64,000 nucleotides of DNA from Anaeromyces robustus. Taxonomy: Eukaryota. Shown here in pieces: positions 17,346-25,129 of this stretch (position 1 is its first letter; each line of letters begins with the position of its first letter). The stretch lies in contig MCFG01000018.1 in NCBI GenBank assembly GCA_002104895.1, positions 62,001 to 126,000 of the forward strand, in the 5' to 3' direction. Below the pieces are notes generated by a model. That model searched no databases. It had not been told where the DNA came from and was given only the letters and a program-made list of their open reading frames with translations. The position numbers and the translations under genes are program-made.

Positions 17346-18801
17346 AATATTTTTTATAATATTTTTTTTAATATTTTTTTTTTTTTTTTGATTTTAATAT
17401 ATGTTTAAATCATCAATTTAGTTAATATATGGTAGATCCTATATTAAAGTTAATTATTACTAATGATTAATTTATTATACATAAAAATTTAACCAATGAA
17501 AAATTAATATATTTAATATAATATTTAAAGATTTCTTAATTATGTCAATAATAAACTAAAAATTAGAAATCTTTTTTTTTATTTTTTAAAATCTCTAAAA
17601 TTCATTTTTATGGTTTAACCCATTTATAAGATCAATTATTAATTTTTATTTTAAATCAAATACTTATTGTTTTTATAAATATATTTATATTTATATATTT
17701 GAACCAAGTTAATAATAAATATATTTATATAAATAAGTTTTGAAATGTAACAATTATTATTTTATTTTATTTTTTTTTATTTTATTTTATTTTATTTTAT
17801 ATTTTTATATTATACTTTACTTAATATTTTATATTTTACTTTGTTCTTTTCTTTAATTTTATATGTATTTTTTTCTTATTAAATAACCTTACTTTTTTCT
17901 TATTAAATCTTATTTAACTATTCATTAATCATTATATTATTCTATTTCATAATTAAATTATTTATTCTTAATATATAATATTATTAATGTATTAAATATA
18001 ATTATAATAAATACTTTCTATTTAATAAATACTTTCTATTCTTTTGAATTAAATATTTAACAATAATAAAATAGTAAAAAAAAAAAAAAAGAAAAAATAT
18101 GTGATATTTGTTAATATTGATAACAATAACAATAATAAATTTTTATTATTAAATAAAGTTTGTTATCTAGTATATGGGAATTTGGAGCAGATTTTTAGGA
18201 TAAATTATTATTATTATTTTTTTTCTTTTTTTTTTTGATGTGTAATTTTTTTTAATATATTACAATATATTTTTATAATATATTATATATTTAATATTGT
18301 AGGAAAAAATTATTATATTAATATATTAATAAAAATATATATATATATATATACTTTTTTTCTTTTATTTTTTCATTTTTCATTTTCATTTTTTCTCTAC
18401 CTTAAAAAAAAAAAACTTTTTACTAATTAAAAAAGGTAAAATTGTCATGTGTCTTTATAATATAAATGAAATTGAATAATTAATATATATAATAAATTAT
18501 TATATGAATAATTTATTAATTTTTTAATTCGTTAAAATACTATTTCTTATTGAAAATGTATATTTAATTCTAATTATTATCTTTTTTATTTTATTCTATT
18601 TCAATTAATTTTATTTTATTTTATTTATTTTTTGTATTATTTTATCATGTTTATTCCAGTTTAATATTTTTTTAGATAAAATAAATAAATATCTGCATTT
18701 TTTTTTAAAGTAAATTTTTATTCACCCTGGCTAGAACAATCTTAAGATTTGGGTGGTTCTCAGCCTCAAAATCATTATCATCAAGGTCTTTTTCTTGGAC
18801 T

Positions 18802-22741: not shown

Positions 22742-25129
22742 ATGACTACATTATTAATTGATAATTACGATAGTTTTACATATAATATATACCAATATTT
22801 ATGTCAATTAGGTGCTAAAGTTGAGGTATATAGAAATGATAAAATTACTCTTGAAGAATGTATTAAACTTAATCCAAGAAATGTTGTTATTTCCCCAGGT
22901 CCAGGTCATCCAGATAATTCTTCAGGTATTTCAAAAGATGTTATAAAACATTTTGAAGGTAAAGTTCCAATATTTGGTGTTTGTTTAGGTGAACAATGTA
23001 TGTATTCTCTTTATGGTGGTACAGTTACCTATACAGGTGAAATTGTTCATGGTAAGACTTCACCATTAACCCATGATGGTAAAGGTGTTTTTTCTGGTAT
23101 TCCACAAGGTATTGAAGTTACTCGTTATCATTCTTTATCTGGTGATCCAGATACTTTACCTGAATGTTTAGAAATTACTAGTTGGACAGATAGTCGTAAA
23201 GTTATGGGTATACGTCATAAGAAATATGTTATTGAAGGTGTTCAATTCCATCCAGAAAGTATTGCTAGTGAATATGGTAAAACTTTATTAGCTAACTTTT
23301 TAAAATGGGAAGGTGGTACATGGGATACTTTAAAGATTAGAGAAGATTTAATTAATCCAATTAATGAACATATTCCAAGAAGTTTAAGATCTAATATTAG
23401 TGGTGGTGGTCAAAATTATCAAATTACTTTACCTTCTACATCTTCTAAACCAACAGAAGTTAAACAACAATCTATTTTAGAAAGAATTGCTGAACAAAGA
23501 CGTATTGATGTTGCAAATGCTAAAGCTATACCTGGTAGATCTTCTTATCATCTTGAAAAATGTATTGCTTTAGGTTTAGCTCCTCCAACCATTAATTTTG
23601 CTGAAAGATTAAAAAGAGGTACTCATCCAAATGATGATGTTGCTTTAATGGCTGAAGTTAAAAGAGCTTCTCCAAGTAAAGGTAATATTGATATTACTGC
23701 TCATTCTGCAGCTCAAGCTTTAGTTTATGCTAAAGGTGGTGCTTCTGCTATTTCTGTACTTACTGAACCAACATGGTTTAAAGGTAATTTAAATGATTTA
23801 CGTGATGTTAGACAAGTTTTAGATCAATTACCGGATAGACCAGCTATTTTAAGAAAGGACTTTATTGTTGATAAATATCAAATTTTAGAAGCTAGATTAT
23901 GTGGTGCTGATACCGTTTTATTAATTGTTGCCATTTTAACCGATGAACAATTAAAGGAATTTATGGCCTTTGCTCGTACTCTTTCCATGGAACCTTTAGT
24001 TGAAGTTAATAAGGCCTCTGAAATGGAAAGAGCTATTAAACTTGGTGCTAAAGTTATTGGTGTTAATAATAGAAATCTTCATACCTTTAATGTTGATCCA
24101 AAAACTACAACAAATCTTGCCAATATGGTTAGTGGAGATATTATTTTAGCTGCTTTAAGTGGTATTAATAGTAGAGATGATGTTGATAATTATGTTAATG
24201 CAGGAGCTAGAGCTATTTTAGTTGGTGAAGCTTTAATGCGTGCTGATAATACAGATCATTTTATTAAAGAATTATTAGGTAGAGTACCACCTACTAAGGT
24301 TAAGAAAACTGTGGATGAAATTATTGAAGAAACTTCAGGTGTACCAAGACCTCTTAAGGATAATCATACTTTAGTTAAAATTTGTGGTATTAGTAATGTT
24401 GAAGATGCTATTGCTACGGCTAAAGCAGGTGCTGATTTCATAGGTCTTGTTTTCTTCAAGAAATCACCAAGATATGTTACACCAGAAAAGGCAAAAGAAA
24501 TTGTTATCGCCCTTAATCATTATAGAGAAGAAAAATATGGAGCTTCTTCTTTAACCGTAGAATGTCAAATGCCATATCCTGGAGATGCCAGTCTTTCTTC
24601 TTGGTTTAATACTACCTCAAAAATTATTGGCCTGACCTTAGAAAAACGTAAACCATTAGTGGTAGGTTTATTTGTTAATGAAACCTATGAATATATTAAT
24701 AGTATTGTACGTGATGTTGGTTTAGATATTGTACAATTACATGGACAAGAACCATTAGAATTAGCACGTATGATACCTGTTCCAGTATTAAAGGCATTAA
24801 GTATTGGACCAACCGATACTGAAAAGGAAGTCATTGAAAATATTAGAAAGGGTAATGGTTTAAATTCTATGTTCTTATTAGATACTAAAGTTGTTAGAAG
24901 TGATCTTCCAGGTGGTAATGGGGTTACTTTCAATTGGGAACTTGTTAGAGAAGTTAGTAAAACTATACCATTTATGGTAGCAGGTGGTTTAGATTCTAAT
25001 AATGTTAAGGAAGCTATTGAAATGATGCATCCATGGGCTGTTGATGTTTCTAGTGGTGTAGAAAAAGCAAAAGGTGTTAAAGATCTTGAAAAGATTAAAC
25101 AATTTATTAATGATGCCAAATCTGTATGA
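22742..25129 (+). CDS. TRP1: Trifunctional anthranilate synthase component II (GATase) / indole-3-glycerol-phosphate synthase / PRA isomerase (fungal trpC/trp-1 type), intronless
   Basis: IDNYDSFTYN, SPGPG, GVCLG, RYHSL, GVQFHPES (GATase); AEVKRASPSKG, LRKDFI, GVNNRNL (IGPS); VKICGI, VQLHG, AGGL, VDVSSGVE (PRAI). Confidence 0.97.
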   Translation: MTTLLIDNYDSFTYNIYQYLCQLGAKVEVYRNDKITLEECIKLNPRNVVISPGPGHPDNSSGISKDVIKHFEGKVPIFGVCLGEQCMYSLYGGTVTYTGEIVHGKTSPLTHDGKGVFSGIPQGIEVTRYHSLSGDPDTLPECLEITSWTDSRKVMGIRHKKYVIEGVQFHPESIASEYGKTLLANFLKWEGGTWDTLKIREDLINPINEHIPRSLRSNISGGGQNYQITLPSTSSKPTEVKQQSILERIAEQRRIDVANAKAIPGRSSYHLEKCIALGLAPPTINFAERLKRGTHPNDDVALMAEVKRASPSKGNIDITAHSAAQALVYAKGGASAISVLTEPTWFKGNLNDLRDVRQVLDQLPDRPAILRKDFIVDKYQILEARLCGADTVLLIVAILTDEQLKEFMAFARTLSMEPLVEVNKASEMERAIKLGAKVIGVNNRNLHTFNVDPKTTTNLANMVSGDIILAALSGINSRDDVDNYVNAGARAILVGEALMRADNTDHFIKELLGRVPPTKVKKTVDEIIEETSGVPRPLKDNHTLVKICGISNVEDAIATAKAGADFIGLVFFKKSPRYVTPEKAKEIVIALNHYREEKYGASSLTVECQMPYPGDASLSSWFNTTSKIIGLTLEKRKPLVVGLFVNETYEYINSIVRDVGLDIVQLHGQEPLELARMIPVPVLKALSIGPTDTEKEVIENIRKGNGLNSMFLLDTKVVRSDLPGGNGVTFNWELVREVSKTIPFMVAGGLDSNNVKEAIEMMHPWAVDVSSGVEKAKGVKDLEKIKQFINDAKSV

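Follow-up and report, generated by a model that had tools for sequence, protein, structure and literature searches.

The stretch of DNA analysed here (hereafter the window) comprises 64,000 nucleotides (nt) of contig MCFG01000018.1, positions 62,001 to 126,000 of the forward strand, from Anaeromyces robustus, which a taxonomy check places in the Neocallimastigomycota, and it has a GC content of about 15%. Between 18727 and 25129 it holds three complete open reading frames (ORFs), co-oriented on the plus strand and placed head to tail, namely ORF-A, which belongs to an unnamed family, TRP2 for anthranilate synthase component I and the trifunctional gene TRP1. This trio is a real, deeply conserved operon-like array, and its co-transcription is likely, judging from intronless contigs of related gut fungi that run across the gene borders. 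The features, with positions in the window, are as follows.

18727 (CTG) or 18802 (first ATG) to 20594 (TAA), plus strand: ORF-A, five exons
18727/18802-18843, 19596-19778, 19894-20000, 20138-20357 and 20505-20594, plus strand: exons of ORF-A, based on open frame and splice sites
18727-18801, plus strand: putative N-terminal extension of ORF-A, 25 codons, in the CUG-initiated frame
20505-20628, plus strand: junction exon, internal, 124 nt
20595-20622, plus strand: spacer 1, 28 nt, 61% A, no ATG
20623-22644, plus strand: TRP2, predicted anthranilate synthase component I, 504 amino acids (aa), TAA stop, four exons, based on Pfam
20623-20628 (ATGAGT), 20733-20943, 21241-21363 and 21470-22644, plus strand: exons of TRP2, with GT-AG borders
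22645-22741, plus strand: spacer 2, 97 nt, 72% A, no ATG
22742-25129, plus strand: TRP1, predicted trifunctional protein, 795 aa, TGA stop, intronless, based on Pfam

An earlier note on this DNA, made from its letters alone, had described three co-oriented coding sequences with spacers of 28 and 97 bp, a start of ORF-A at 18727 and seven introns in the 5' part of the locus. The coordinates hold, a conserved open frame does begin at 18727 (with CTG), and all seven introns are of the GT...AG type, have 5-12% GC and lie inside 18844-21469. Its remark that other intergenic gaps amount to roughly 1 kb or more agrees with a rough check of both flanks of the trio: no GC-rich open frame was found between about 15700 and 18708, and the first coding signal 3' of 25129 begins at about 26.2-26.8 kb, as part of a gene with a Sas10 domain. 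The border between ORF-A and TRP2 falls inside an exon. This junction exon consists of the last 29 codons of ORF-A with the TAA, the 28-nt spacer and the ATGAGT of TRP2, and it is bordered by intron A4 (20358-20504) and TRP2 intron 1 (20629-20732), both with GT-AG ends.

Using the large TRP2 exon as query, a metagenome scan returned 80 loci, four of which (L001-L004) show 91-95% protein identity and 85-92% DNA identity to the query. L001-L003 measure 5.0-6.2 kb, and L004, of 2.0 kb, ends within TRP2. All four are without any of the seven introns and collinear with the exons of the window, and this absence of introns suggests that they derive from RNA of related gut fungi. ORF-A, TRP2 (502 aa) and TRP1 (790-793 aa) are present in L001-L003 as separate ORFs in the order seen in the window; L004 contains ORF-A and a part of TRP2. 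The junction exon is spliced at both ends in each of the four contigs. Five of the seven splice junctions match the ends of high-scoring segment pairs with these contigs; the remaining two, between ORF-A exons 2/3 and 3/4, fall in a variable stretch, where the model is supported by the open frame and by the spliced translation, which through exon 4 does not differ from the annotated A. robustus protein P0010.

The spacers are short in the relatives as well, with 29, 25, 25 and 22 nt for spacer 1 in L001-L004 and 87, 65 and 26 nt for spacer 2 in L001-L003. Including the window, spacer 1 ranges from 22 to 29 nt (5/5 sequences) and spacer 2 from 26 to 97 nt (4/4). The first ATG past each stop is the start of the next gene, the spacers being free of ATG in all five and all four sequences respectively, an absence which is not significant for stretches so short and poor in G. 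Because the same order and short spacers recur in relatives, the linkage of the trio exceeds chance; the earlier note had regarded a want of conserved tight linkage as evidence against its own reading, and in gut fungi the linkage turned out to be conserved. With a spacer 2 as short as the 26 nt of L003, a poly(A) site and a transcription start could not both be accommodated. The spacer 2 of the window has two exact copies of a 17-nt direct repeat, ACAAAGAATTAAATAAA, 21 nt apart, together with an A16 run, and a local duplication would account for its 97 nt as against 26-87 nt in the relatives. On reading spacer 2, no plausible GT...AG pair was seen for an intron that would excise the TRP2 stop. 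A TATAAA at the TRP2 stop was considered as a TRP1 promoter; it is conserved, yet it belongs to the Ile-stop codons and in L003 lies merely about 27 nt 5' of the ATG, which makes it unconvincing. Another gut-fungus TRP1 model, P0141 (827 aa), has a longer A-rich spacer 2, of no less than 111 nt, in which the gene caller used an in-frame ATG that yields a Lys-rich extension of 36 aa.

Outside the gut fungi, gene order was read from consecutive NCBI accessions, locus tags and merged gene models. TRP1, TRP2 and ORF-A have consecutive accessions in two assemblies of Powellomyces hirtus, and in Dinochytrium ORF-A (merged with a splicing factor), TRP2 and TRP1 are likewise consecutive. ORF-A and TRP2 follow each other in Rhizophlyctis, in two Gaertneriomyces species and in Chytridium lagenaria, and TRP2 and TRP1 do so in Phlyctochytrium arcticum, Hyaloraphidium, Gonapodya prolifera and Polychytrium, so that, with Dinochytrium, all five TRP2/TRP1 pairs looked up are consecutive. 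ORF-A and TRP2 are fused in gene models of Quaeritorhiza and Rhizophlyctis, as are TRP2 and TRP1 in those of Thoreauomyces and Borealophlyctis; such merged models imply co-orientation and closeness in these four genera. The two latter models (P0166, Thoreauomyces, 1344 aa; P0169, Borealophlyctis, 1281 aa), which hold TRP2 and TRP1 in one protein, are either annotation merges or true four-function fusions, and P0166 has Ile in place of the TRP1 Met at the join. TRP2 and TRP1 lie on equal-sized contigs in 11 of 16 chytrid-grade species as against 1 of 26 other early fungi, in a tally made by eye over the species named in both match tables, with size serving as a proxy for contig identity; five of the 11 chytrid-grade contigs are of 13-82 kb, and the sole match among the other early fungi is of 2.3 Mb. 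Taken at the level of annotated sequences, the order of the trio is conserved in Chytridiomycota and Monoblepharomycota besides the gut fungi, that is, in three phyla, which answers the suggestion of the earlier note that synteny be checked in chytrids. No paper on this arrangement was found in our literature searches.

The two TRP genes are recognisable by their domains. TRP2 matched PF04715 (E=2.9e-12 and 1.5e-07) and PF00425 (E=3.4e-92), and this combination of an Anth_synt_I_N with a chorismate-binding domain identifies its product as a predicted anthranilate synthase component I. TRP1 matched, in this order, PF00117 (residues 4-187), PF00218 (246-511) and PF00697 (best stretch 632-790), as expected of the fungal trifunctional G-C-F protein with glutamine amidotransferase, indole-3-glycerol-phosphate synthase and phosphoribosylanthranilate (PRA) isomerase functions. 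The TRP2 N-terminus (MS or MN and the following exon) is conserved in L001-L003. Outside gut fungi, the closest TRP2 matches are from chytrids (64-67% identity), followed by other early fungi, and the closest TRP1 matches are from chytrids and monoblepharids (50-57%); over chytrids and other early fungi together, identities are 56-67% for TRP2 and 47-57% for TRP1. Among the 120 TRP2 matches listed, a bacterial name stands on one row only (P0131). With chytrids as the nearest relatives, the TRP2/TRP1 pair is evidently inherited vertically, and the import of a bacterial trp operon is ruled out, as the nearest relatives are fungal and not bacterial. The earlier note had reached the same view from the fungal architecture of the genes, and both the G-C-F fusion and the spliceosomal introns on which it relied are present.

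ORF-A, in comparison, lacks a recognisable fold or family. It has 233-248 codons and invariant motifs throughout the family (VEDL, RHRA.KR, D.CRDRRRR, P.W..F.L.W and a terminal A), and the tail encoded by the junction exon is kept down to the terminal A(A) in 9/9 aligned members. Homologs number 16 by word index and 20 by profile among 1.84 billion representatives, and all profile hits whose names were looked up are chytrids. Pfam gave no match for the four ORF-A exon pieces of the window, and in searches with the nine aligned members any family that came up did so for a single member (best E 0.004). A profile search of the Protein Data Bank (PDB) with the family returned no match at E up to 1, and the ESM Atlas no usable match. 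The AlphaFold2 model (mean pLDDT 52.5, one basic helix) is too poor for a fold search, and a complex prediction for ORF-A with TRP2 scored 0.00 in a run made without alignments, which is evidence neither way. ORF-A is thus described as a basic and, by prediction, mostly disordered protein of an unnamed family which appears confined to chytrid-type fungi. Its ratio of nonsynonymous to synonymous substitution rates (dN/dS) is 0.31-0.50, compared with 0.07-0.13 for the TRP genes (TRP2 0.07-0.13, TRP1 0.08-0.12). A non-coding leader is ruled out by this ratio, the conserved C-terminal tail and the chytrid homologs, and by the same sequence evidence ORF-A is a real gene.

The reading frame of ORF-A appears to begin at a conserved CUG at 18727, in the context CCACC-CUG-G (TCACC in the window), with the first AUG 25 codons further on. 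In the relatives the 25-codon extension occupies 124-198 (L001), 78-152 (L002) and 1247-1321 (L003). Conservation sets in abruptly at CCACC; variable sites within the extension are distributed 4/1/14 over the three codon positions, and 11 codon columns show synonymous change only as against 4 with a change of residue. An in-frame ATG between the upstream stop and the extension was found in none of five sequences. The residues of the extension have homologs inside the Powellomyces protein P0014. Its composition (4 basic, no acidic and 9 Ser/Thr residues) gives a basic, acid-free, Ser-rich N-terminus which we take to resemble an organelle-targeting signal, and CUG and AUG isoforms of ORF-A are possible. 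The public A. robustus model P0010 (185 aa) runs into intron 4 (...SLSWV) and is without both the conserved last exon (NDESS...LITLAA) and the CUG-started N-terminus.

To explain the array we favour an account which, taken as a whole, we hold tentatively and at somewhat less than an even chance. ORF-A, TRP2 and TRP1 would form an old, selectively kept, co-oriented array of chytrid-type fungi (the clade chytridiomyceta), compressed in the anaerobic gut fungi. Since the spacers there are too short for a terminator plus a promoter, RNA polymerase II would read through, and spliced RNAs would carry two or all three of the ORFs. ORF-A would be translated as the 5' cistron, from the CUG and from the AUG 25 codons downstream. 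TRP2 and TRP1 would be translated mainly from shorter nested RNAs, which we infer to start inside the upstream gene and to share the 3' end of the array past TRP1. A common 3' end and promoters embedded in upstream genes would hold the genes together.

Contig sizes are consistent with RNAs of more than one length. In five of ten ORF-A clusters of RNA or metagenome origin the longest contig is of 4.75-5.0 kb, the size of the trio, and three ORF-A clusters peak at 2.3-2.55 kb, with room for ORF-A and TRP2 only. Of the 15 gut-fungus TRP1 clusters with 88% identity or more, leaving out P0147 of the window itself, 12 had a longest contig of at most 3.0 kb. These short TRP1 contigs may come from an RNA of TRP1 by itself or from assemblies that broke at the A-runs of spacer 2, and they are counted together with the 2.3-2.55-kb ORF-A contigs in favour of nested RNAs. 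Of the words sampled from 18300-25500, a share of 0.65-0.68 was found in 15 public runs, which come from 12 studies and of which 9 are recorded as RNA; the calculated share is about 0.63-0.68 for spliced whole-locus RNA and about 1.0 for DNA, and it is uninformative on the spacers, whose coverage shifts the expected value by about 0.03, close to sampling noise. Towards their 3' ends, ORF-A (3/24 against 49/119, p=0.009) and TRP2 (11/52 against 147/380, p=0.014) show less synonymous change, with no drop at the 3' end of TRP1 (p=0.36), in windows picked post hoc over only 4-5 sequences; the lowering fits embedded promoters and reinitiation signals alike. For genes that sit on polycistronic RNAs in Agaricomycetes, independent transcription has been described as well (PMC4503453).

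Several points weigh against this account. L001-L004 are short-read assemblies, and a contig that runs across gene borders need not stand for a single molecule. In L003 a divergent minus-strand ORF (3-902) is joined on as well, with about 420 nt of AT-rich DNA in between; L001 continues into an ORF (5128-5307) 300 nt past TRP1; these are merges of unrelated neighbours, and assemblers therefore do bridge true intergenic DNA. No poly(A) tail was seen at contig ends. The nested start sites are purely inferential, no start site or promoter motif having been identified, and the contig breaks at spacer 2 could be technical, arising from the A-runs. The short TRP1 and ORF-A contigs, as a possible sign of separate RNAs, are a further caution on the RNA evidence. 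The post hoc choice of the synonymous-site windows adds to these points, as does the kind of data available for chytrid genomes, which provide order and merged models, with strands and spacer lengths not among them.

The ORF upstream in L003 encodes an acidic protein with a signal-peptide-like N-terminus, and the one downstream in L001 is short and Asn/Tyr-rich. Neither gave a tblastn match in the window, and judging from these contigs the flanks differ between relatives while the trio is kept.

The inference drawn in the earlier note was that the locus may be one polycistronic mRNA, translated by reinitiation or internal entry. In full, one capped, spliced and polyadenylated RNA would serve the whole trio, with TRP2 and TRP1 translated by termination-reinitiation or by internal entry on the A-rich, unstructured spacers, and the synthesis of both anthranilate synthase subunits would be coupled. 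The coding sequences, the spacers, the shared exon and the border-spanning intronless contigs on which this inference can draw stand, and one molecule spanning all three genes is, on this basis, probable. Further in its favour are the shortness of the spacers (22-29 nt, and down to 26 nt for spacer 2), the next ATG past each stop being the downstream start, the ORF-A stop and TRP2 start lying in one exon, the order kept across three phyla and the reduced synonymous variation immediately 5' of both downstream starts. Translation is where it meets difficulties, and we consider it possible, if rather improbable. The upstream ORF-A is long, with its 233-248 codons, and ribosomes normally reinitiate very poorly after so long an ORF; TRP2 in turn has about 500 codons and many Met codons. 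Between the ORF-A CUG and the TRP2 ATG there are 11-18 ATGs, where shuffles predict 12.5-13.8; ORF-A is neither short nor AUG-depleted, which makes leaky scanning of the green-alga type unlikely. In the termination upstream ribosome-binding sites (TURBS) of caliciviruses, stop and start overlap or lie a few nt apart and an upstream UGGGA pairs to 18S rRNA. Here the stop-to-start distances are 22-29 and 26-97 nt, and no UGGGA occurs in the final 120 nt of ORF-A (0/5) or of TRP2 (0/4), and so TURBS-type reinitiation does not fit the locus. Stop read-through or a fixed fusion frame is rejected as well, as the offset from ORF-A to TRP2 varies (2 in L001; 1 in L002, L003 and the window). The many contigs that hold TRP1 alone, and the in-frame ATG in the longer spacer 2 of P0141, also speak against a single mRNA. 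An elaboration of the same idea sees in the trio an ancient eukaryotic 'trp operon' of chytrid-type fungi, in which one spliced mRNA with reinitiation across A-rich spacers of about 25 nt favours co-translational subunit assembly, and the CUG-started ORF-A, with invariant Trp codons 7-35 codons before its stop, serves as a regulatory first cistron by which TRP2 translation is adjusted to the supply of tryptophan, as a eukaryotic analogue of leader-peptide control. We regard this elaboration as distinctly doubtful.

The trio could instead consist of three overlapping monocistronic units, each having a promoter within, or immediately 5' of, the upstream gene and a poly(A) site within the gene or intron that follows; the ORF-A RNA would for example end in TRP2 intron 1, and the 5-kb contigs would be assembly chimeras. 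Assemblers did merge unrelated neighbours in L003 and L001, contig classes of about 2.3-2.55 kb and 2.6-3.0 kb exist beside that of about 5 kb, and AATAAA-like strings were found in spacer 2 of the window, although AATAAA is expected by chance in sequence of 85-90% AT. The 26-nt spacer 2 of L003 and spacer 1 of 22-29 nt would, however, force an overlap of at least several hundred bases, the path from exon 4 through the junction exon to TRP2 exon 2 was assembled in 4/4 contigs, and conserved adjacency is explained less well than by a shared RNA; we judge such units to be unlikely. A different possibility is that the junction exon is a cassette whose skipping joins ORF-A exon 4 to TRP2 exon 2, so that an ORF-A::TRP2 fusion is, at least partly, the source of TRP2. 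Both exon borders are in phase 0 in the window, so skipping would keep the frame, and the same join occurs in two chytrid models (P0055, ...SLQW|TTFKPS; P0274, ...LSW|TPFKPS), but merges made by gene finders are in frame by construction. As the exon is included in all four RNA-derived contigs, the tail conserved in 9/9 members argues that a stand-alone ORF-A protein is real, and TRP2 has a conserved N-terminus of its own, skipping seems highly improbable as an explanation.

Beyond the trio, a multi-exon neighbour lies downstream at 26844-30059 on the plus strand, with the C-terminal Sas10 domain at its end (E=3.6e-29), and an ORF resembling a 4Fe-4S / radical-SAM activating enzyme occurs at 50182-50958 on the minus strand. 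Within TRP2 intron 2, at 21045-21150, lies a long (ATT)n microsatellite with T- and A-runs after it.

Textbooks use tryptophan genes to contrast the operons of bacteria with the scattered genes of eukaryotes. At this locus both subunit genes of one enzyme have remained directly adjacent in three fungal phyla; gut fungi have them 26-97 nt apart, and a third conserved gene ends in the first exon of TRP2. If one mRNA feeds all three proteins, the locus would be a conserved, function-linked eukaryotic operon and would offer a natural cassette for expressing several genes in anaerobic fungi, whose engineering is difficult. If, as we prefer, nested promoters are involved, it would be a clear case of overlapping transcription units that hold gene order fixed over long spans of evolution. 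In both cases, the public ORF-A model is corrected at its last exon and its CUG-started N-terminus, and a new chytrid-specific protein family is defined that is genetically tied to TRP2.

Polycistronic read-through units are known from mushroom-forming fungi (Gordon et al. 2015, PMC4503453; Ganoderma lingzhi 2024, PMC11590231). They resemble the trio in that co-oriented neighbouring genes share common spliced RNAs and are perhaps also transcribed singly. The linkers in Agaricomycetes average 434 bp (PMC4503453, PMC11590231), as against 22-97 nt here, and conservation of the units fades outside one class, whereas the order of the trio spans three phyla. The gene border inside an exon, and two of the genes encoding subunits of one enzyme, likewise set the trio apart from the units as described there. 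The Agaricomycete cases are reported to rest on long reads, and the trio rests on short-read assemblies.

With the bacterial trp operon (trpE-trpG/D-C-F...) the trio shares the adjacency and co-orientation of both anthranilate synthase subunit genes, with component I first, followed by amidotransferase, indole-3-glycerol-phosphate synthase and PRA isomerase functions. Unlike that operon, the trio is of fungal descent, has spliceosomal introns and the G-C-F fusion, and is without a short leader peptide with tandem Trp codons, the conserved Trp residues of ORF-A being non-adjacent (W198 and W205 in the numbering of L001); coupling of the Shine-Dalgarno type is impossible for it. The polycistronic loci of green algae depend chiefly on leaky scanning past upstream ORFs that are short and poor in AUG, whereas the upstream ORFs of the trio are long and not AUG-depleted. 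These algal cases are nuclear loci with several ORFs per transcript, conserved between species (Gallaher et al. 2021, PMC7896298). Finally, as in fusions of tryptophan enzymes (G-C-F, bacterial TrpE-TrpG and the P0166 and P0169 models), interacting or consecutive enzymes are kept together in the trio, and TRP1 is itself such a fusion; unlike in these fusions, stops and untranslated spacers part the ORFs in the window and in L001-L003, and the frames vary by taxon.

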